Positions 5,723 to 61,712 of a DNA stretch of 64,000 nucleotides are shown piece after piece. Each line of letters starts with the position of its first letter. The first letter of the stretch is position 1. This DNA comes from Escherichia phage vB_EcoS_Uz-1: sequence record OP312987.1; one strand, written 5' to 3'. A model generated the notes under the pieces. It was not told the origin of the DNA. It saw nothing but the letters and a program-made list of their open reading frames with translations, and searched no databases. Position numbers and translations under genes: made by a program.

Positions 5723-7515
5723 ACTCACATACCCCCTTTGATGCAAATCAGGATTGGACCAATCCTTACTGTCATAACAGTTCCAATGACCCTATGGTAG
5801 ATGCACTGCTTGGTAATGCTTACCATGTGGTACGTACTGTCTACTGTAATTTAGGTAACCTCAAACTCATTTATGATTTCTTGAATAAATATGGAATGGT
5901 GCTTGGTGTACAGTCTGAAGCAGAACTTAAAGCATTAACTACTAAAGCTAAGTATGCACGTATCTACGGCTTCTCTCGTACAGGTGACCGTCAGGTAACT
6001 GACTACTTATACGTAGAGGGTGACCGTACAGGTATTTTACCCGATGACACTACTGCAACCGGTTCATGGATTACTGTTGCTACTTCTGGCTCTACTGGTG
6101 GTGGTGGTACTTCTTCCAGTGAAGGTGCTTATATTCCTTGGGTATACAGCAATGGTTCCGCTACTGGTGGTGAAACCACAATTAACGTACCTGACGGTAC
6201 TGTGGGTGTACCTTTTATCATTATTAATGGTGACATGCAGTATGTAGGGCGAGGCTTTGAGTTTAACGCAGATAACCTGTCCGTAACTCTGGCTCAGCCT
6301 CTGGAAGAGGGTGATGAAGTAGTATTCCTTCTGACTGGGGTTCCTGCTGTACCAGATAATCCTAACGTTAACGACTGGGTTCAGATTAATTGGTTATACA
6401 ACAATGGTGCTGCTGTAGGAGGTGAGCAGGTTATTGCTATCCCTTATACCTTCCAGTCTATTCCTGCCGTGTATAAGAATGGACTTCGTTTGTATAAAGG
6501 ATTAACTACTGAGTCCTATACTGCTGACCCGGATAGCCAACGTATACTTCTTACTGAACCACTGACAACCAATGACCGGTTGATTGTGCAAATTGGTGGG
6601 GAAGCACAGGTACTGGAAGCATCAGACCATACTCTTCAGGAAGTTGCTCGTGCTGCTAATGTTAAAGATAGTGAAGTAATCCTTAGTACTGATACTTCTC
6701 AGATACTTAATGGTAAAAAGGTAATTTTTGATGTAGCTACCCAACACTGCTATGCCTTACCTACTTTGCCCAGTAATGTTTATATTACGTCTGTTAATGA
6801 AGGTCAGTTAACATTTTCCCCGGGTAATATAACAGTTGATTTGTTACCACTGGTTGACTCAAAGGAAAACATTGTTGCTGTGGTTAAGGATATCTATTCA
6901 CAGTCAACTGGTTCGGTATCCGTTGGGCATGGTTCAAGAACTGTTGCTGACAATCTAGATGATATCAAGCATTCAGCTAACTACCCTGATTTACAAGCTG
7001 CAATTGACGCTACAAATCCACGTGATGATCTGCTCATTACAGCAGGTACATACCCAGGTGGGTATACTTCAGGTAATGCAAACCTAATCGGTGTAGGTTA
7101 TGGTGTCAATTTTACCCCGGGTATTGGTAAAACTTCTCTTACACTTTCCGAGTCTTCTCGTTTATGGCAATACCGCCATGCGGAAAACTTTCTAATAACT
7201 GGGTCAGTAGATGTACCACAGGGCATCGGCATTACTTTTGGTGGTTCGCCTACACCGAACCTGGATGGGCGTTGGAATTTTAAACACATTGCATTTGACG
7301 GGCTTGACATTGGTGTATTTAAACCTAAAGGGAATATTGGTAATACATACCAACACTGCAGCTATTTAGGGTGTAATTACGGGCATAAAACTGAGTCAGA
7401 TCCAAATATGCACGTGGGGCTGATACATGGAGGGATTGCCATTTTGCAGGCATCAATACTTATGGTATTTACCTTAACGGTTCTGTTGGTGGCCCTGCTC
7501 CAGGTGGTGGTCTAG
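5713..7515 (+). CDS. tail fiber / tailspike-like protein (N-terminal part)
   Basis: 600-aa ORF, Gly/Thr/Ser-rich with an internal tandem repeat of an NG..GGE module; the last ~25 residues are hydrophobic and look out of frame. Confidence 0.65.
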   Translation: MAMNSHTPFDANQDWTNPYCHNSSNDPMVDALLGNAYHVVRTVYCNLGNLKLIYDFLNKYGMVLGVQSEAELKALTTKAKYARIYGFSRTGDRQVTDYLYVEGDRTGILPDDTTATGSWITVATSGSTGGGGTSSSEGAYIPWVYSNGSATGGETTINVPDGTVGVPFIIINGDMQYVGRGFEFNADNLSVTLAQPLEEGDEVVFLLTGVPAVPDNPNVNDWVQINWLYNNGAAVGGEQVIAIPYTFQSIPAVYKNGLRLYKGLTTESYTADPDSQRILLTEPLTTNDRLIVQIGGEAQVLEASDHTLQEVARAANVKDSEVILSTDTSQILNGKKVIFDVATQHCYALPTLPSNVYITSVNEGQLTFSPGNITVDLLPLVDSKENIVAVVKDIYSQSTGSVSVGHGSRTVADNLDDIKHSANYPDLQAAIDATNPRDDLLITAGTYPGGYTSGNANLIGVGYGVNFTPGIGKTSLTLSESSRLWQYRHAENFLITGSVDVPQGIGITFGGSPTPNLDGRWNFKHIAFDGLDIGVFKPKGNIGNTYQHCSYLGCNYGHKTESDPNMHVGLIHGGIAILQASILMVFTLTVLLVALLQVVV

Positions 7516-8483: not shown

Positions 8484-10598
8484 ATGAACGAAATGTTCTC
8501 ACAAGGCGGTAAAGGCTCTACTGGTATTCTTACCAATAAGCAAGCCATTGCCCGTAAGTTTGGTGTTAAGCAGAATGAAGTAGTCTATTTTTCTGTAGGT
8601 GTAGACTTGGGTGGATACAAAGTCATTTATGATAAGACTACTCAACGCGCTTACTCATTGCCCGTACTTCCAGTAGGAACCACTGCTGTAAGTCTTAGTG
8701 AACATGCAGTCTTGGTTCATTCGGCAGGTACAGTTGATTTGGGTGAACTGGCTGCTGCACGTAGAGAGTTTGTATGCTTATCTGATTCATTTACTACGGG
8801 CTTAGTAGTAAATACTCGAAATGAGCTTTTGATGCATAATGGTATTGGTTATACCTACTTAGGTTCTCTACCCGTAACTATTGTTGAAGGGGCCAACCCT
8901 GTTGGCAACACGGATTGGAAGTCCCAAACGGATCCTAATTTGCGTGCTCAGTTGGCATCTCAGGATGGTATGACTTTAATTGGTAGTGTACCCGACGTAA
9001 CTGCCCTGGCTTCTGTTGGAGCAACAGTAGGGTCTAGTATAATGCTAGATTCGTACTCAGGCTCTTCCGTTGGTGGGGGTATTATGATTGCGGTTCCTAA
9101 TACTACTCCTGTAGATGAAGTTGTAACTTTCACCGGTGCAGGAGTGGTCTGGAAGCGTAAGTTCTTTGATGGCACTGCTACGGTATACGATGCAGGTTAT
9201 ACTGGTACGGGGGATATTGCCCCATTCATTAACAAGGTAAACTCTGCCGGTTACGATTGTCTTGTACCTACATCAGGGACTATTAGTACACCTATCTTAC
9301 TGGATGTAGCTAAGGGGGCTTTAGTAGGAGCCAATAAGTGTACCCTTACGGAAATGGAAGGTGTAACAGGAGAGTATTATTTAACCGTAATCAATTCTAA
9401 TACAGATTACACAGCCCGTGATGCCATTAATGCTACTGCCCTATTAACAGGTATTTCCTTTGTAGGTAAAGGTACTCGAAAGATGTGCTTGGGCAGTAGT
9501 ACTGGAGGGGAGATAGCAGAATTACGTATATCTAACTGCGGGTTTATATCTACCGCAGGTATTGAGTTTAAAGATAATGCATACCGTATCCTGTTTGATA
9601 AGTGCACCATTTCTCGCAGTTTTACTAACTCTGTAATCTTTAATTCCCCGGTTAATGCTGGTGAGGTTATAAAATTCAACCACTGCTGGATGGTTGATAA
9701 TGGGGGTCCATTTACATTTGAGAATGGGCAGTTCATCTTTGATTCATGCTCATTACCAGCAGGTAAAAAGGCAGGCTACTTCGATCCAGTAGTGGCATTA
9801 AGTGATAATGCTACCTTAGTATTTGCTAACGGTAATATTGAGTATCAACCCGGGCAGAGTTTTGTAGGCTTTACTGTGAGTGGAAGCTCACGCCTCAGTA
9901 TTAAAGATTCTACTATTCTGCTTCCAGAAGGCTACAGTACAGTGCCTATTGTTAGTAATGGTGATGGGGTAGTTAGTTTAAATAACTGCTCATTGCCCCT
10001 CTACGGTAACACAACGATTGCTACTGGATTTGCTACAAGACAGTTGATAGGCGGTGCAAGTAAAAAAGTAATGTCCAGAGGGTGCTTCCCTCGTGCAGGA
10101 TTTATTACAACTAACTGGAATCTAGGGAGCATTGTAAGCCCATATATTAATAGTATTAGCAATGGCTCAGGACAGTTTGGAAATACATCTAACTGGACAC
10201 TCTCGCAAACTGGAACAGGTGCTGTCACTGCTACTACAGCAAATGATGTTCCTAACGATTTAATGTTTACAACTTCTTTTGTTTTATCTGTACCATCAGC
10301 AGATGCAGCAGCTAACTTCACTCAAACAATCATTGATTGTGAACCGGGTCGTTATTTTCAGTTTGGTTTTTGGGCTAAAAATACAACAACCACCTTGGCG
10401 TCAATTAGATTCCTGGACCAGCAAGGAAATGCTGTTGCGGATTCCATAGGATATATCATTCCAGTAGTAAACACGTTCAACTTTTACGCTTTGGTGGATT
10501 GCGTTCCTCCAGGAGCTTACAAAGCTGAAATTAATTTTAATGTTTCTTCAGTTGTTGGAGGCGTCGTAATACACAATGCAGTTTATGGATTGATTTAA
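8484..10598 (+). CDS. tailspike / receptor-binding-like protein
   Basis: 704-aa ORF, ATG 8484 with GAGG upstream; N-terminal ~45 aa share a motif (..TQ..Y.LP.LP) with an internal segment of the 5713 gene; beta-rich, Gly/Thr/Asn-rich. Confidence 0.7.
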   Translation: MNEMFSQGGKGSTGILTNKQAIARKFGVKQNEVVYFSVGVDLGGYKVIYDKTTQRAYSLPVLPVGTTAVSLSEHAVLVHSAGTVDLGELAAARREFVCLSDSFTTGLVVNTRNELLMHNGIGYTYLGSLPVTIVEGANPVGNTDWKSQTDPNLRAQLASQDGMTLIGSVPDVTALASVGATVGSSIMLDSYSGSSVGGGIMIAVPNTTPVDEVVTFTGAGVVWKRKFFDGTATVYDAGYTGTGDIAPFINKVNSAGYDCLVPTSGTISTPILLDVAKGALVGANKCTLTEMEGVTGEYYLTVINSNTDYTARDAINATALLTGISFVGKGTRKMCLGSSTGGEIAELRISNCGFISTAGIEFKDNAYRILFDKCTISRSFTNSVIFNSPVNAGEVIKFNHCWMVDNGGPFTFENGQFIFDSCSLPAGKKAGYFDPVVALSDNATLVFANGNIEYQPGQSFVGFTVSGSSRLSIKDSTILLPEGYSTVPIVSNGDGVVSLNNCSLPLYGNTTIATGFATRQLIGGASKKVMSRGCFPRAGFITTNWNLGSIVSPYINSISNGSGQFGNTSNWTLSQTGTGAVTATTANDVPNDLMFTTSFVLSVPSADAAANFTQTIIDCEPGRYFQFGFWAKNTTTTLASIRFLDQQGNAVADSIGYIIPVVNTFNFYALVDCVPPGAYKAEINFNVSSVVGGVVIHNAVYGLI

Positions 10599-10603
10599 TT
10601 AAA

Positions 10604-10628
10604 ACTAAGGCCCAAACTGGGCCTTTTC
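10604..10628. terminator. bidirectional intrinsic terminator between convergent genes
   Basis: Hairpin GGCCCAAACTGGGCC with T-rich flanks on both strands, between the stop of 8484..10598 (+) and the stop of 10629..11282 (-). Confidence 0.6.
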
Positions 10629-11282
10629 TTATATAGAGTTTACTGTTTGCATTACCTCAACCGATACTGCTGTTAGGGTAATTACTTGCCCGGATAAGTT
10701 AAACATACCCAACTGAATACCATCTACCATGAAAGGGTCAGATGAACCAAGTGTGTAAGTAGCTAGTACGTTATCCCTATTAGCTATGTCCGTACCCTGT
10801 ACCTTAACACTAGTGTCTGAACCAACTACTGTAGTTCCATTGGTTCGTCTTGTTTGTGTTCTCCATTCTCTTGCTGTACCAGCACCTCCTGTAATAGTTC
10901 CTGATATACGTACACTGAACATTACCTGGGTATTCCTGGTTCTAATAGGGAATTTAAGATTACCTCCTTCAATTGTTAATGCTGCTGTACCCCCAGGTGA
11001 TTTAGTTATCCATGGTAATGAAAAGTAATTGAGCCAGGACTGGTCATTTACTACCTGGCTCCCGGTCCATGTATACAAGTCCAGAAGGAAAGTATCTTCT
11101 AACTCTGTTGGTGGGATGGGTAGTAGTTCAGGGGGAAGCTCTGAAACGTTATTAGCAGAAACTATTCGTTCCCCATAGCTTCCCACGACCAACAAACCAC
11201 CCTTCATTTTGCACACAACATCCTTACCACTTTGGAAAATATCTTTAATAGACATAGATACCTCGTAGTTGATACCAGACAC
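10629..11282 (-). CDS. hypothetical protein encoded opposite to the late operon
   Basis: 217-aa minus-strand ORF inside the plus-strand late module, bounded by the bidirectional terminator and a ~100 bp AT-rich upstream region. Confidence 0.6.
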   Translation of the reverse strand: MSGINYEVSMSIKDIFQSGKDVVCKMKGGLLVVGSYGERIVSANNVSELPPELLPIPPTELEDTFLLDLYTWTGSQVVNDQSWLNYFSLPWITKSPGGTAALTIEGGNLKFPIRTRNTQVMFSVRISGTITGGAGTAREWRTQTRRTNGTTVVGSDTSVKVQGTDIANRDNVLATYTLGSSDPFMVDGIQLGMFNLSGQVITLTAVSVEVMQTVNSI

Positions 11283-11379
11283 TATGTCTGGATGTACTCC
11301 ATCATACTAAGTATTATCTAAGAGTCATCTTATGATACGACCCTATTGGGGTTTCTAACTTTACAACTACGGTAATATT

Positions 11380-11709
11380 ATGAATGAATCGGGTGAACTG
11401 CTCCTAGTCAGACTGGAGGAACGATTGAAGACTCTGTTTGAGAACCATACAAGGGAAAGGCAGGACCGTGAGAAACTGGAGGAAACTCTGGTGGAACTAC
11501 GGGATTCAATCAATGACATAGGCAATAGACTGAAAAATGTGGAAGAGAGCATCACTAAGTCTGAACCCACCATTGAAGAGTTCATCACCATTAAACATAA
11601 GGTTGCTGGTGCTGGGATTTTTGGTAAGTGGGTATGGGCTGGAGCAGGTGCAATTATTGGTGTATTGGCTGCTGCAAGACGGGAGATATTCGCATGGTTC
11701 GCAGGCTAA
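11380..11709 (+). CDS. membrane protein with coiled-coil N-terminus and C-terminal TM anchor (holin/antiholin candidate)
   Basis: 109 aa; charged coiled-coil-like N-terminal half, C-terminal hydrophobic stretch GIFGKWVWAGAGAIIGVLAAA; sits at the head of the lysis cassette. Confidence 0.5.
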   Translation: MNESGELLLVRLEERLKTLFENHTRERQDREKLEETLVELRDSINDIGNRLKNVEESITKSEPTIEEFITIKHKVAGAGIFGKWVWAGAGAIIGVLAAARREIFAWFAG

Positions 11710-16953: not shown

Positions 16954-18156
16954 ATGTTAAACTATAACGCCCCAATTGACGGCCAGAAATCTAGCATTGA
17001 TGGTGCTGGTTCCGACCAGATGAATACCTATTACTGGCTGAAGAAAGCTATTATTCAGTCTCGTAAAGATCAGTACTTCATGCCACTGGCTAACACCATT
17101 AACATGCCGAAGAACTATGGCAAGACTGTTAAGGTGTATGAGTACGTTCCGCTGCTTGACGATAAGAACATTAACGACCAGGGTATTGATGCCAACGGTG
17201 CTACCATTGTTAATGGTAACCTGTACGGTTCTTCCAGAGACGTTGGTAACATCACCTCTAAACTGCCTCTGCTGACAGAGAATGGTGGTCGTGTTAACCG
17301 TGTAGGCTTTACTCGTCTGTCTCGTGAAGGTTCCATCCATAAGTTTGGTTTCTTCTACGAATTTACTCAAGAGTCCCTGGACTTTGATTCTGATGACCAA
17401 CTGAAAGAACACCTGTCTCGTGAGCTGATGAACGGTGCTGTACAGTTGACTGAAGCTGTTCTCCAGAAAGACCTGTTGGCTGCTGCTGGTACTGTACTGT
17501 ATGCAGGTGCTGCTACCTCTGATGCTACCATCACTGGTGAAGGTGCTACCCCGTCTGTAGTTTCTTATAAGAACCTGATGCGTCTTGACCAGATTCTTAC
17601 TGAGAACCGTACTCCGACTCAGACTACTATCATCACTGGTTCTAAACTTACTGATACCAAAGTACTCGGTGGTACTCGTGTAATGTACGTTGGTTCTGAA
17701 CTGGTTCCAGAACTGAAAGCGATGAAAGACCTGTTCGGTAACAAAGCATTCATCGAGGTTCAGCACTATGCTGATGCTGGTACTCTGATGAATGGTGAGA
17801 TTGGTTGTATCGACAAGTTCCGTATTATCCAGGTTCCTGAGATGCTGCATTGGGCAGGTGCTGGTGCTCAGGTTACTACTAACCCGGGTTATCGTTCTTC
17901 TATGGTTAGTGGTCAAGAACACTACGACGTATTCCCAATGTTGGTAGTTGGTGATGACTCCTTCTCTACTATTGGCTTCCAGACTGATGGTAAGTCTGTT
18001 AAGTTCTCCATCATGACTAAGATGCCTGGTCGAGAAACTGCTGACCGTAATGACCCGTATGGTGAGACTGGCTTCAGTTCCATCAAGTGGTACTACGGTA
18101 TCCTGGTTAAACGTCCGGAACGTCTGGCTCTGATTAAGACTGTTGCTCCTCTGTAA
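16954..18156 (+). CDS. major capsid protein
   Basis: 400-aa ORF with AGGA SD, strongly expressed-gene codon usage (antisense strand stays open for 472 codons), followed by a strong hairpin; N4-like position. Confidence 0.8.
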
Positions 18157-18172
18157 TAGTCCTAAATAAAAC

Positions 18173-18194
18173 GAGGGGGACTTATGTCCCCCTC
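18173..18194. other. stable GC hairpin downstream of capsid gene
   Basis: GAGGGGGAC-TTAT-GTCCCCCTC, 9-bp stem; a T-tract follows only on the minus-strand reading. Confidence 0.4.
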
Positions 18195-18223
18195 TTAACA
18201 AAACTAATTGAACCACAGGAAAT

Positions 18224-18865
18224 ATGAACATGAGCATTAACGATAAACCGACCACTGACGTAGAACTGGGCGTACAGGGCAACGAAGATACCGTTAACGA
18301 TATTGCAATGCCTAGCGAACTTGAAGTTCTTAAGCAACGTGCAACGTTGATGAATATTAAGTTCTCTAACAACATCTCCGTTGAGAAACTCCGTGAGAAG
18401 ATTGAAGCTGCACAAGCAAAAGATGAACCAGAAGTAAAAGAAGCTGCTGTTAACCCTTTAGGCGAAAAACAAGAAGCTGGTGTTAAGAAAATGACTCTGG
18501 GTCAGAAGATTCGTGCAGAGCAGACTCGACTGATTCGTGTACGTATTCAGAACCTTGACCCTAAGAAGAAAGATCTGCCAGGTGAGATTATCACCGTAGC
18601 TAACGAATATATGGGTACTGTACGTAAGTTTGTTCCATTCGGTGAAGTCACCGACAATGGTTATCATATTCCGTACTGTATCTACGAGTTCCTTAAAGAA
18701 CGTAAGTTCATCAACATTACGACTCGTAAAGGTAAGAATGGCTTACCGGATATCCGTGCAACAGAAGCACGAGAGTTCTCCATTGAAGTATTGCCTCCGC
18801 TGACTGAAGCAGAATTGGCTCAACTGGCTCAAGCACAGATTGCTGCTGGTAGCCTGAACGATTAA
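18224..18865 (+). CDS. hypothetical virion protein
   Basis: 213-aa ORF, AGGAA SD, followed by an intrinsic terminator. Confidence 0.6.
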   Translation: MNMSINDKPTTDVELGVQGNEDTVNDIAMPSELEVLKQRATLMNIKFSNNISVEKLREKIEAAQAKDEPEVKEAAVNPLGEKQEAGVKKMTLGQKIRAEQTRLIRVRIQNLDPKKKDLPGEIITVANEYMGTVRKFVPFGEVTDNGYHIPYCIYEFLKERKFINITTRKGKNGLPDIRATEAREFSIEVLPPLTEAELAQLAQAQIAAGSLND

Positions 18866-53880: not shown

Positions 53881-55263
53881 TTAGACCAGTATGTCTAGGA
53901 TTTCCCAGTATTCCCTGTCATCCAGTCCTACGTATTCCAGAATACCAATACGGTGTTCAGTAACATATTTCTTGAAGCCTTTACTGGTAATAACTGGCAT
54001 CAGCTCCATAAAGCGAACATCATCAATGTGGATAGCACCTCTCCGTTTGGCCTTGTTAGCTTCGATTTGATTACGGCAGACAACAGTCTCTGCTCTCATC
54101 TCATCAGATAACTCATACCATTTCCACATGGTTCCAATTCGAGCAGTTACTGGGCTACCTGAACCAACCTGATTGGCTAGTACGTAGTACTTAGGTTGCT
54201 CTACTTCAACGAAACCAGACTTATCATGGCGACTTGGGTCTGCAAATTCCTTCTGAATATAAGGCTTTGGTTCCCAATCCCCATTTTTATTCCGTATTTG
54301 GGTAGCACCAAGAACTGCATTCAATGAAATCAGAGAATTAGTTTTACCTCCTGCCTTGGTTTTATTGGCAGCGATTGTCTTAGACCGTTTCTCAGCAGCT
54401 ATCTTAGCTTTCTCTCTACGGAAGTTAGTTGGTTTGTCCCACTCATTATATTGAGTAAGGTCGATTACCCGATAACCCATAGCAGTGAACTTAGCCACAG
54501 CTTCTTCTGCTGCACCCTTCTTAGGTCCAACGACGTGAACAAAAGCTGTACGCTCCAGGTCACCTCGATCGTACTCAGGGAAGTACGAGAAAGAGTCTGC
54601 ACAGTCAGACAAACGTCGGGTAACTACAACGTTTTTGGTAGTGAATATGCCAATACTTTGGTGGGAGTTATTGTATATCCTAAAGTAGTCAGTAAGTTTA
54701 CCTTTTACCAAGTCAACACGGTTACCTTGATTCATTATGTAACCAGACCACTTAATACCAGAGGTTTTCAAAGCAGCCAGCTGAGGTAAGTGCAGATGGC
54801 GATATACTAATTCCGAGAATGGGGAGTATGTACTTTCTTCACGAGTATCCTTAAGAGCACGCATAGCCTTACCATACAGTTTCTTAAGACCTGCGTATTC
54901 AGGACGAGCTAATAATGCCTTATTGGATAAATTACGCCAGTGCTTGATGTAATGCTTACGTTGCTTAGCCCACAAACTAGAGGACATATAGCGTTGAACA
55001 GTTCTGTCTGTAACAGCACCCAGGAATGATGGATACTCCCAGAAGCGAGTAGAGGATTTAGAAGCATATTCTTCAACCTGCTTAATGGCTTCAGGAATCT
55101 TAGCCTTAATCTCTTTCTCCATACGGTCTACTAAATCTACACATAGAGTAGTAATACCATCGTCGGTTAACTTCTGGTTAGACAGCGTTTCTCGACTAGG
55201 AGCAATAGCTAAAGTGTCTGGTGCAGCCTGAACTACTAGATTAGAAGCACCAATAATATTCAT
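53881..55263 (-). CDS. rIIA: rIIA-like protein, C-terminal fragment
   Basis: 460-aa ORF starting 17 nt after the GHKL-ATPase ORF in another frame with no SD; its frame is open ~20 codons upstream into the other ORF's end. Confidence 0.55.
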   Translation of the reverse strand: MNIIGASNLVVQAAPDTLAIAPSRETLSNQKLTDDGITTLCVDLVDRMEKEIKAKIPEAIKQVEEYASKSSTRFWEYPSFLGAVTDRTVQRYMSSSLWAKQRKHYIKHWRNLSNKALLARPEYAGLKKLYGKAMRALKDTREESTYSPFSELVYRHLHLPQLAALKTSGIKWSGYIMNQGNRVDLVKGKLTDYFRIYNNSHQSIGIFTTKNVVVTRRLSDCADSFSYFPEYDRGDLERTAFVHVVGPKKGAAEEAVAKFTAMGYRVIDLTQYNEWDKPTNFRREKAKIAAEKRSKTIAANKTKAGGKTNSLISLNAVLGATQIRNKNGDWEPKPYIQKEFADPSRHDKSGFVEVEQPKYYVLANQVGSGSPVTARIGTMWKWYELSDEMRAETVVCRNQIEANKAKRRGAIHIDDVRFMELMPVITSKGFKKYVTEHRIGILEYVGLDDREYWEILDILV

Positions 55264-55280
55264 GAAGTTGAGGATAAGGC

Positions 55281-56099
55281 CTACAGCTTCTTCACTAGCT
55301 GGGCTGGATACAATTGGTACATTACATTACCGTAGCGAACGTATATGTTACTGCTACCCATATAGCCTTGATACCATCTATCAGACATATCATATGAACC
55401 AGGTTCAAATGGCATGCCTAGTGTATCCAGTAGAGTGTAGTCGCCTTGTTGAATACTATTACTCTCGTCTGTTCTAATGAGTTTGGGAGTACTTAGCTCA
55501 GCTTTAATTTCACCGTTAAACACAATTGATTTGATGTAATGAATAAAGGTATTTAAATCATGTTTGCCTAACTGGAATTTAACTTCCAGACCAGATTCCT
55601 CAGTAGGAATACCAGTAATAATAGGAACAATACCAGGCTTACCATCATTCTCAATTGCAGCCTTAGCTACGTTATATACAGACATCTTCCCTTGGTTCCA
55701 TGATGTAACCTGGAAGCTATCTGTATAAGCGAATGGGGATTTACATCCCAGACCAAAGCCACCAGTAACACTACTGTTGGACTTCTTGGTAGATGCACCA
55801 TAGACACCATAAATGGAGCCAATGAGTTCATCTTGGATACCGTTACCGAAGTCACGGAAGGTAATAAAGTTGTCAGTATCAATGGTAATACGGATAGGAG
55901 TATCAGTCTTACCTGCTTCAATATGGGCATCCCAACTGTTACAGATAGTTTCACGGACTACTGCCAGAGTAGGGTTGTTATACAAGGAAGTACTTAATAC
56001 ATGAAAGAATGCCGGGTCATCAGAGATGCCAAAGGCGATTGCTTCTTTGCCACCCAGTGTCGCTGAAGTGGCTGATTGATTGGTATCTGCAACTAACAT
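55281..56099 (-). CDS. rIIA: rIIA-like protein, N-terminal GHKL (Bergerat-fold) ATPase fragment
   Basis: ExxxNxxDA-type VRETICNSWDAH, DxGxG-type FRDFGNGI and Gly-rich VTGGFGLGCKSPF motifs, as in GyrB/Hsp90/MutL-type ATPase domains found at rIIA N-termini. Confidence 0.65.
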   Translation of the reverse strand: MLVADTNQSATSATLGGKEAIAFGISDDPAFFHVLSTSLYNNPTLAVVRETICNSWDAHIEAGKTDTPIRITIDTDNFITFRDFGNGIQDELIGSIYGVYGASTKKSNSSVTGGFGLGCKSPFAYTDSFQVTSWNQGKMSVYNVAKAAIENDGKPGIVPIITGIPTEESGLEVKFQLGKHDLNTFIHYIKSIVFNGEIKAELSTPKLIRTDESNSIQQGDYTLLDTLGMPFEPGSYDMSDRWYQGYMGSSNIYVRYGNVMYQLYPAQLVKKL

Positions 56100-60634: not shown

Positions 60635-61234
60635 TTACCTGGCATCTGTCCACCAGCCATTTTCTGGCTTTGCATTGCACGTACTACGTTGTTGACAACA
60701 GCACCCTGGGACTGCCCGGAGTGGGGATTTCATGTCGCCAGCAAGACCTGCTCCAGCACCCCCTGACGGCTTCTGCCTTTTCTGAGGGTTCTTCATCAAG
60801 TCATCGTAGATATCTTCTTCGACCCATCCTTTATATTGAGGGTCTTTGCAAATACCTTTGTCGATACCAGTGAATTTGTAACCATCTTCTTCTAACTGAA
60901 GGTTAATGAAGTGGTCACATGCCTGGTTCCAGACTTCTGGGTCACGGCTTCCACGACGGATGTCATGTAGATATGCCACATGCCAGAGTTCGTGCATTAA
61001 CACTGTTTCTCTTGCGTCTGGACACATCCAGATAAAGAAATCTGGATTGAAATGGAGTTCTATCCCATCGGTACATGCAGTGGGACAATCCTCGCGTTTC
61101 CACGAGAACTTAAGACTACATAGTAATGAACCAAAGAACGCAGCGCTTCGACCTAGGAAAGCCTGAGCTTGAATACGATCATATTCACGCATGAGTTGTT
61201 CATCTGTGAGACTATGCGTAGGTATACTGTTCAT
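60635..61234 (-). CDS. zinc metallopeptidase-like fragment (HExxH), N-terminal part of metallopeptidase-VWA protein
   Basis: HELWHVAYLH motif; C-terminal ~40 aa of the ORF look out of frame (Cys/Gln-rich). Confidence 0.55.
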   Translation of the reverse strand: MNSIPTHSLTDEQLMREYDRIQAQAFLGRSAAFFGSLLCSLKFSWKREDCPTACTDGIELHFNPDFFIWMCPDARETVLMHELWHVAYLHDIRRGSRDPEVWNQACDHFINLQLEEDGYKFTGIDKGICKDPQYKGWVEEDIYDDLMKNPQKRQKPSGGAGAGLAGDMKSPLRAVPGCCCQQRSTCNAKPENGWWTDAR

Positions 61235-61712
61235 TAGGGTGCTCCATGATTGGGGTGATAGCCATACAGTTTTTCAGCCGCTTTTCTGGCGTCTATGGCA
61301 TCTTGCTTGTCTGCAAAAGTGCCCAAACTTACCAGACGTGTTCCATCAGATATAGCTGCATACCAGATGGAATCACGCTTGTGCCAGTACACACCAGTAA
61401 CACCACTGGAATTAGTTACCCGTTTCTTTTGGTTTCTGGTGTTAGTTCTGCTGTCTACTAATCTAAAGTTACTTAGAAGGTTATTAACCCTATTGTGGTC
61501 TAGGTGATCAATCTGCATACCTTTCGGGATAGGTCCATTGTGCATTTCCCATATGACACGGTGCACTTTGTAACTTTTGCCCTTATAGTTGAAGCATAAA
61601 TAACCATCGCTATTTAGATTACCTACCTTTTTCCAGCAATGCCTCTGGAGGCTACTGTAACTTTCCAGAATAGCTCCCCATTTATGTAAACGAGTATGTC
61701 ATTCCAGTTCAT
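61234..61712 (-). CDS. HNH homing endonuclease with AP2-like domain, frame-shifted in this assembly
   Basis: ORF track 61234..61566 has HNH motif IDHLDHNRVNNLLSNFRLVDSRTN and AP2-like tail; the N-terminal ~50 aa (MNWNDILVYINGELFWKV...) lie upstream in another frame from ATG 61712, joined if an A5 run gains one base. Confidence 0.75.

Follow-up and report, generated by a model that had tools for sequence, protein, structure and literature searches.

The DNA analysed here is a 64,000-nucleotide stretch of Escherichia phage vB_EcoS_Uz-1 (sequence record OP312987.1; 'the window', from the first nucleotide of which all coordinates are counted), and the subject of this work is a single gene that lies on the minus strand within its plus-strand late block. 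Over the 4.3 kb around this gene the window showed 98.5 % identity, with matching coordinates, to phage PD38 and to Escherichia phage Bp4 (NC_024142.2; Gamaleyavirus, Enquatrovirinae, Schitoviridae), and by sequence comparison it is essentially Bp4. The antisense open reading frame (ORF) corresponds to Bp4 orf14 (EpBp4_0014, labelled 'hypothetical protein' in the record), whose product is 100 % identical in Bp4 and PD38. On the plus strand it is preceded by genes for the terminase, a virion protein and three receptor-binding proteins, orf11, orf12 and the 704-amino acid tailspike orf13 (8484–10598, plus strand), the last of which is its convergent partner, and it is followed by orf15 (11380–11709, plus strand; N4 gp63-like), its divergent neighbour and the first gene of the lysis cassette, and then by the holin, endolysin, spanin and portal genes and, further on, the gene for the 3576-amino acid virion RNA polymerase. 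An antisense ORF in this position had been reported in a first-pass annotation of the window and is indeed present.

The longest version of the ORF (10629–11282, minus strand) encodes 217 amino acids from a GTG codon, which is the length given in the first-pass annotation. The true start, however, is almost certainly the ATG at 11255, which gives a coding sequence of 208 codons plus stop (10629–11255, minus strand), because a Shine–Dalgarno sequence GAGG (11261–11264, minus strand), conserved in phages pSb-1 and UE-M6, lies 5 nt upstream of this codon and the starts of homologues align with the methionine encoded there. All 20 of the 20 aligned homologues start at this methionine or no more than three residues from it; homologue P0002 carries a 17-residue N-terminal extension, which is probably an upstream start call. 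The GTG-initiated frame therefore exists, but a 217-amino acid product is unlikely.

That orf14 is a real gene under purifying selection is clear from comparison with its relatives. Among Bp4, pSb-1 and UE-M6 the ratio of non-synonymous to synonymous substitution rates (dN/dS) was 0.08–0.14 at a dS of 0.29–0.37, in the N-terminal as well as the C-terminal part, with 0.11–0.14 in the pairs that include Bp4 and 0.08 for pSb-1 versus UE-M6. The protein matched PHROG 17779, a family of unknown function, with an E value of 5e-116, HMMER, run exhaustively over 1.8 billion representative proteins, returned 126 relatives, and homologues in N4-like phages of Salmonella and Shigella were 51–66 % identical. 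The alternative of a chance antisense ORF that is no gene at all, for which nothing speaks beyond the purely mechanical listing of ORFs, is refuted by this selection and these homologues, together with the confident fold and the ribosome-binding site, and its probability is negligible. The coding signal on which the gene call in the first-pass annotation depended is thus present. The G+C content across orf14 (0.38–0.49) was the same as in its flanks, and base composition gave no sign of a foreign origin, no anomaly relative to the surroundings being found.

A hairpin (10607–10625) separates the stop codons of orf13 and orf14; its 8-bp stem, with five G–C pairs, encloses a loop of 3 nt. Downstream of the hairpin come a T-run on the plus strand (TTCTTATAT) and, on the minus strand, AGTTTTAATT. 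Read in either direction, it has a free energy of about −13 kcal/mol (z = −2.5 and −2.9). The hairpin is conserved in phage EC1-UPM, it shows compensatory changes in the Ackermannviridae phage A221, and phage St11Ph5 has a different G+C-rich stem at the same place, which together form the pattern expected of a functional terminator. It is therefore a good candidate for the bidirectional intrinsic terminator, common to the tailspike gene and orf14, that had been proposed in the first-pass annotation.

The intergenic region upstream of orf14 extends from 11256 to 11379 (11283–11379 if counted from the GTG codon). It had been described as the gene's own AT-rich upstream region; such a region exists and holds a promoter-like site, but its enrichment in A+T is only slight (G+C 0.34–0.38, against 0.36–0.49 in neighbouring 100-nt windows). 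The candidate promoter (11301–11328, minus strand) is of the sigma70 type, with a −35 element ATGACT (11328–11323), a 16-nt spacer and a −10 element TATGAT (11306–11301), matches the consensus at nine of 12 positions and is invariant in pSb-1, UE-M6, EC1-UPM and St11Ph5. Of the 27 nt around the −10 element, 19 are shared with a stretch (2595–2621) ahead of orf8, the gene with which the late block begins. Exact copies of TTAGTATSATG and of AATAGGGTC precede both genes in the same order, and AATAGGGTC is found exactly at one other place in the window, 45261. This suggests a promoter of late sigma70 type, which by analogy with N4 would depend on N4SSB. Late expression of orf14 is suggested both by this resemblance to the orf8 upstream region and by the position of the homologue in Shigella phage B2, which lies in a late antisense operon. 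With this predicted promoter and the hairpin terminator, orf14 has the makings of the independently transcribed unit envisaged in the first-pass annotation.

Back-to-back with the minus-strand TATGAT lies a plus-strand −10-like TATGAT (11331–11336), a candidate promoter of the unit formed by orf15 and the lysis and portal genes. About 90 bp upstream of the leader hairpin described below were almost invariant, even in phages without orf14, and the simplest explanation of the sequence data is that the region also holds a plus-strand promoter for the lysis/portal unit, for which reason it would be kept after deletion of orf14. The predicted 5′ leader of orf14 contains a perfect hairpin, CCAGACA-tag-TGTCTGG (11275–11291; 7-bp stem, 3-nt loop), whose fold energy was unexceptional (z = −0.67). 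Promoters of the N4 virion RNA polymerase lie at the genome end and have a GC-rich heptamer centred at −11, with a purine at −11 and G at −10 and −8 (PMC4496689). By these rules and the unremarkable fold energy, an early promoter of this type was rejected for the leader hairpin; an operator, an RNA stabilizer or a recombination hotspot are candidates for its role.

A Pfam scan of the orf14 product returned no family at E < 0.01. In an alignment of 21 homologues (56–92 % identity) the N-terminal ~55 residues were variable, whilst the C-terminal ~150 were highly conserved and included the motif GGAGTAREWRTQTRR. The AlphaFold2 model built from the homologue alignment (mean predicted local distance difference test score 76) was mostly beta, in line with the beta-rich protein of the first-pass annotation, and had a small alpha/beta part at its N-terminus, then a linker of low confidence (residues 47–53) and, from residue ~55, a beta jelly roll. 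The best Foldseek matches of the model in the PDB were the tail-needle knobs of phages Sf6 and HS1 (E ~1e-6, probability 1.0); further matches with a probability of 1.0 were the C1q-like exosporium protein ExsFA, the TNF-like lectins PLTL and BC2L-C, the PRD1 P5 spike and TNF-family ligands. E values in this set (3RWN, 4K6B, 7R5I, 9IB7, 1YQ5 and 2WQ4) ranged from 1e-6 to 1e-4 and TM-scores (template modelling scores), normalized by target, from 0.54 to 0.64. Matches among the viral structures of BFVD were to a 'Sf6-type tail needle knob', a 'C1q domain' and collagen-repeat proteins.

In nearly all of the 126 relatives, which are 170–900 amino acids long, the corresponding domain stands at the extreme C-terminus, and its N-terminal partners, in those that were scanned or read, included collagen repeats, phage fibre repeats, a tail-tip domain and a GDSL esterase. 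The C-terminal domain of orf14 (codons ~55–208; 10632–11093, minus strand) is therefore predicted, from the model and the relatives, to be a generic TNF/C1q-like distal knob of the kind found on phage fibres. Jelly-roll knobs of the TNF/C1q-like fold are typically homotrimers, and from this fold class and the collagen-repeat partners in relatives we infer that the orf14 product trimerizes. The label 'protease' attached to homologues in the records of phages TR2, S5 and CLB_P1 was rejected, there being no Pfam family and all fold matches being jelly-roll knobs.

In three epsilon15-like Uetakevirus phages a 181-amino acid knob-domain protein with 56 % identity was found (e.g. Salmonella phage PAT1, 4917–5462), encoded inside the block of head genes, between portal/Bbp19-like genes and the protease gene; there it is an accessory gene in the head module. 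A 99-amino acid gene upstream of the PAT1 knob gene was considered as a Dec-like gene and rejected, as it is Bbp19-like and unrelated.

In some GenBank records (those of phages UE-M3 and UE-S5b) the orf14 homologue already bears the label 'tail needle knob'. The knobs of Sf6 gp9 and HS1 (3RWN and 4K6B) are the best structural match to the C-terminal domain, being TNF-like jelly rolls that form the C-terminal end of a phage fibre, but their sequence identity to orf14 is only ~17 % and a Pfam match is lacking. The P22/Sf6 tail needle (gp26/gp9) itself was rejected as a model for the whole protein. In orf14 only ~55 residues, predicted to form short helices and strands, precede the knob; the gp10-binding N-terminus and the long trimeric coiled coil of the needle are both missing, and because there is no coiled-coil shaft orf14 is not a tail needle. 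To our knowledge, N4-like tails carry no needle of the P22/Sf6 type. The lectins BC2L-C (N-terminal domain) and PLTL and the exosporium protein ExsFA share the trimeric jelly-roll fold class with orf14, which lends support to the idea that it binds glycans at the protomer interfaces; unlike orf14 they are cellular and not phage-borne, and they show no sequence similarity to it, nor was conservation of their ligand-binding residues apparent.

The small N-terminal part has a different affinity. When the family profile of 21 members was run against all PDB sequences a single match was obtained, to chain J of 9D82, 'B2 Dec Gp45' (E 4.8e-8, positions 1–47). Gp45 of Shigella phage B2, an Ithacavirus, is a 99-amino acid protein that was modelled by cryo-electron microscopy as a homotrimeric capsid decoration ('head fiber') protein and that mass spectrometry also revealed in virions (Subramanian et al., 2024; PMC11654681). 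It was 49 % identical over 45 residues (E 1e-14) to B2 gp46, the orf14 homologue of the same phage, and 44 % identical to Bp4 orf14 (E 4e-6), and the module (codons 1–45; 11121–11255, minus strand) follows the pattern M..D.(I/V)..DGKD...K..GG..VVG..GE..L.AKD..ELP, which among the Bp4 proteins was present in orf14 alone. In its C-terminal half gp45 resembles the 50 distal residues of the phi29 head fibre, as well as a head-fibre protein of a crAss-like phage, so that the shared N-terminal module is most plausibly, on this sequence evidence, the capsid-proximal part of gp45.

The genes themselves are neighbours: a gp45-type gene adjoins the orf14 homologue in B2, FSL SP-058 and TR2, and in B2 the gp45 gene lies immediately upstream of that of gp46, in the same antisense operon. 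The major capsid proteins of Bp4 and B2 are 60 % identical. Like gp45, orf14 is a small protein with a short linker and a distal domain, the trimer being solved for gp45 and predicted for orf14. Gp45, however, ends in a tip motif of the phi29 head-fibre type (PF11133), in place of which orf14 has a 150-amino acid TNF-like knob without a Pfam match, and gp45 is proven on the capsid, where gp46 and orf14 have not been seen. A profile of the 45-residue module run against 5.8 billion proteins returned only fragments and Dec proteins of the TR2 type, with no new domain combinations, and in a tblastn search of B2 gp45 against phages the module was not found beyond Ithacavirus and Triduovirus, the other matches being to the C-terminal tip motif.

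The distribution of orf14 was examined by synteny comparison. The first-pass annotation had described the late region of N4 as co-directional, and genes gp50 to gp69 of N4 do all run in one direction, without an orf14 homologue; no orf14 remnant was found in the spacer between gp64 and gp63. Among the 98 records that matched the 4.3-kb region, orf14 was intact or nearly so in only about 10 Gamaleyavirus phages, namely Bp4, PD38, nithesis, pSb-1, four UE phages, VTCCBPA_322, in which it aligns in two pieces, and the divergent Jgk1; it also occurs in metagenomic relatives. In Gamaleyavirus it is always antisense and always lies between the gp63-like gene and the last receptor-binding gene, whether this encodes a Bp4-type tailspike, a K5 lyase or small proteins. 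The gene is thus accessory, as the first-pass annotation had supposed, and not part of a universal core, and since close relatives with the same tailspike have lost it by deletion it is, on these sequence comparisons, dispensable.

Phages without orf14 nevertheless keep its ends. On one side the last 30–100 nt of the coding sequence and the terminator persist, and on the other the promoter and half of the 5′ hairpin. Four classes of deletion were distinguished. In EC1-UPM, ZQ2, PW8 and PD205, position 10731 is joined to ~11268 at a TGGTAT microhomology; in the G7C-like phages St11Ph5 and ShWW44 about 30 nt of the 3′ end of the coding sequence and an interior scrap are left; HK2 has a third junction; and in U1G, PGN829.1 and the PBM phages the promoter side alone remains. 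The right-hand junctions of all the deletions lie at or just downstream of the hairpin at 11275–11291. Because relatives without the gene still carry both ends, orf14 is no recent insertion but an ancestral gene of Gamaleyavirus that has disappeared on at least two or three separate occasions, the promoter region being spared each time. The proposal in the first-pass annotation that the gene was inserted into a co-directional operon in this lineage is therefore not supported. Phage morons are units within late operons that are transcribed independently, each gene having its own promoter and terminator. Orf14 resembles them in its patchy distribution and dispensable nature, and it has a promoter-like site and a candidate terminator of its own, but unlike them it has no compositional anomaly, it is ancestral and its patchiness stems from deletion and not from insertion; lysogenic conversion offers no rationale for it, because the phage is virulent.

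Homologues in Ithacavirus and Triduovirus occupy the equivalent place, convergent on the tailspike gene. There they form part of an antisense operon that encodes two holins, an endolysin, a spanin, the decoration protein, the orf14 homologue and a 105-amino acid protein. As this operon contains lysis genes and a virion protein, antisense orientation is compatible with late expression, and in orf14 it is no sign of non-late or foreign expression.

Beyond Schitoviridae, an unannotated fossil of 140–300 nt, comprising the 3′ end of orf14 and the terminator hairpin at 82–92 % nucleotide identity, was found in Agtrevirus-type Ackermannviridae (A221, RPN242, PC3, PH4, LHE287, SKML-39, YX22, fGh-Ecl02 and CAU_YEP3). 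Positions 10600–10904 of the window correspond to 5980–6283 of A221, where the fossil is convergent on a tailspike gene whose product shares 81 % identity over the N-terminal 170 amino acids with Bp4 orf13. Compared with intact copies of orf14 the fossil had a dN/dS of ~0.06–0.08, which indicates descent from a functional copy. The other flank of the cassette was found in the Ackermannviridae phage AV101 (5001–5136), between two tailspike genes and 84 % identical to 11275–11420 of the window; this segment contains half of the leader hairpin, the divergent promoter region and the first orf15 codons. Together, the A221-type fossil and the AV101 flank point to transfer of whole Gamaleyavirus tailspike-flank segments into tailspike clusters of Ackermannviridae. 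A speculative proposal, judged improbable, is that the 3′ end of orf14 with the terminator, and the promoter region, serve as conserved homology arms for tailspike swapping both within Gamaleyavirus and into Ackermannviridae.

The reading of orf14 that is put forward here, tentatively and at somewhat less than an even chance, is that its product is an optional trimeric adhesin knob displayed on the virion by a short anchor, most likely docked on the capsid. The gene would be transcribed on its own from a weak sigma70-type promoter, with transcription ending at the hairpin that it shares with the tailspike gene. In the 208-amino acid product, residues 1–45 would form the anchor and residues ~55–208 the C-terminal knob. 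The protein would trimerize and attach to the virion by this anchor, most probably at the capsid in the manner of B2 gp45, and so present the knob as an optional adhesin for a glycan or some other surface ligand. The result would be a short head fibre, functionally like phi29 gp8.5 or T4 Hoc, and its repeated loss would be explained if it were useful in some niches but dispensable. Within this scheme we infer the attachment site, the binding of a ligand, the use of the promoter and the timing of expression. Dispensable, variably present projections on the capsid surface that may aid adherence, the role proposed for orf14, are known in phi29 gp8.5, T4 Hoc and N4 gp17, although their folds (a helix-turn-helix supercoil in gp8.5, Ig-like domains in Hoc and gp17) are unrelated to that of orf14. 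A wider proposal, which is speculative and judged improbable, is that some Schitoviridae possess a modular capsid-fibre system paralleling the tailspikes, in which a 45-amino acid capsid anchor carries interchangeable tips, of the phi29 type in gp45 and a TNF-like lectin knob in gp46 and orf14.

Several observations weigh against a capsid-docked adhesin. Whole-virion mass spectrometry of B2 lists gp45 and not gp46, and the B2 capsid and tail models are both without gp46 (PMC11654681); the supplement of that paper added nothing on either protein, and the paper on TR2 had nothing that bears on the matter. Bp4 already encodes a Hoc-like gp17 decoration protein, and as the related Hoc-like protein of phage Moo19 occupies the same capsid position as B2 gp45 (PMC11654681), the site for docking may already be occupied. 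The knob domain is carried on tail fibres in most other phages, and orf14 is always next to tailspike genes. The promoter is a consensus match of a kind no commoner in the region than in shuffled sequence. Finally, two positions with at least 90 % invariance among the 21 homologues are changed in the Bp4/PD38 allele (G82W and R200E), which could reflect relaxed constraint or adaptation.

Orf14 could instead be a tail-associated auxiliary receptor-binding protein, a stubby trimeric knob on the branched tailspike complex of orf11–orf13 that adds a binding specificity. The solved fold nearest to that of its knob is a tail-needle knob. The gene invariably borders the hypervariable tailspike module and converges on a tailspike gene that, where domains were scanned (L017, L018 and B2), encodes an N-terminus of the Tail_spike_N type. 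The knob also tips tail-fibre-like proteins, being encoded in Chaseviridae by a fifth gene after four tail-fibre genes, and in other relatives it is combined with fibre repeats or a tail-tip domain. On the other hand, the N-terminal module has no detectable homologue other than a capsid decoration protein, and none among tail proteins, phages with an identical tailspike set function without orf14, and gp46 is absent from the B2 tail model and mass spectrometry as much as from the capsid, so that this placement is considered unlikely. That absence would be expected if the product were not a virion component at all but a soluble lectin-like or TNF-like trimer acting in the infected cell or after lysis, for example in receptor masking or debris binding. 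The free lectins PLTL and BC2L-C are among its structural neighbours, and an antisense, dispensable gene with its own predicted promoter and terminator would suit such a part. Nevertheless, no signal peptide or membrane segment was apparent on reading the orf14 sequence, the N-terminal module recurs in a structural capsid protein whose gene is adjacent in B2, the knob almost always caps the C-terminus of a longer fibre-like protein, and no homology to known defence or exclusion proteins turned up, although no PADLOC scan was made; a role outside the virion is likewise regarded as doubtful.

There is, lastly, the question of whether the Bp4/PD38 copy still has a function or is a decaying relic, kept only until deletion occurs. 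Most of the genus has lost orf14 by several deletions, the G82W and R200E exchanges are radical ones at nearly invariant positions, and the VTCCBPA_322 copy aligns as two pieces. The reading frame, Shine–Dalgarno sequence, promoter region and terminator are all intact, however, and the pairwise dN/dS values with Bp4 are close to that of pSb-1 versus UE-M6, which makes a relic very unlikely.

Some other features of the window were noted. Several records give the product of the neighbouring gene orf15 as 'tail length tape-measure protein' or 'tail needle protein', and the paper on the UE phages classes it as a receptor-binding protein. Read by eye, its 109-amino acid product has an apparent coiled coil and a C-terminal hydrophobic segment, and the gene lies directly 5′ of the holin gene; from sequence it looks more like a membrane protein of the lysis cassette than its tape-measure or needle labels suggest. 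At 53881–56099 (minus strand) two adjoining ORFs of 272 and 460 amino acids match the N-terminal and C-terminal parts, respectively, of the PHROG rIIA profile, and may represent a split gene, a frameshift or a sequencing error. Two further adjoining ORFs at 60635–61545 (minus strand), between the gp25-like and gp24-like genes, are HNH endonucleases by the Bp4 annotation (orf66 and orf67). A 472-amino acid mechanical ORF at 16957–18375 (minus strand), antisense to the gene for the major capsid protein, is probably spurious.

It was already known that orf14 is annotated as hypothetical and that its fold class is common in phages. The link of its N-terminus to a solved capsid decoration protein, and its ancestral presence and repeated loss, appear to be new; no paper describing the gene was found, although the literature was not searched for these two points specifically. 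The fossil ends of orf14 are useful as markers in their own right, since they record that the N4-like late region has not always been co-directional in Gamaleyavirus and trace the exchange of tailspike cassettes between two phage families. If the product proves not to be part of the virion, orf14 would be one more dispensable accessory gene. If it is displayed on the virion, phages of the Bp4 type would carry an extra adhesin that is missed by host-range predictions centred on tailspikes, which would matter for E. coli phages intended for therapy, such as the UE series. The pair formed by gp45 and gp46/orf14 would then be a clear case of anchor-plus-swappable-tip modularity on a phage head and, should a modular capsid-fibre system exist in these Schitoviridae, the head as well as the tail would bear exchangeable adhesion modules.

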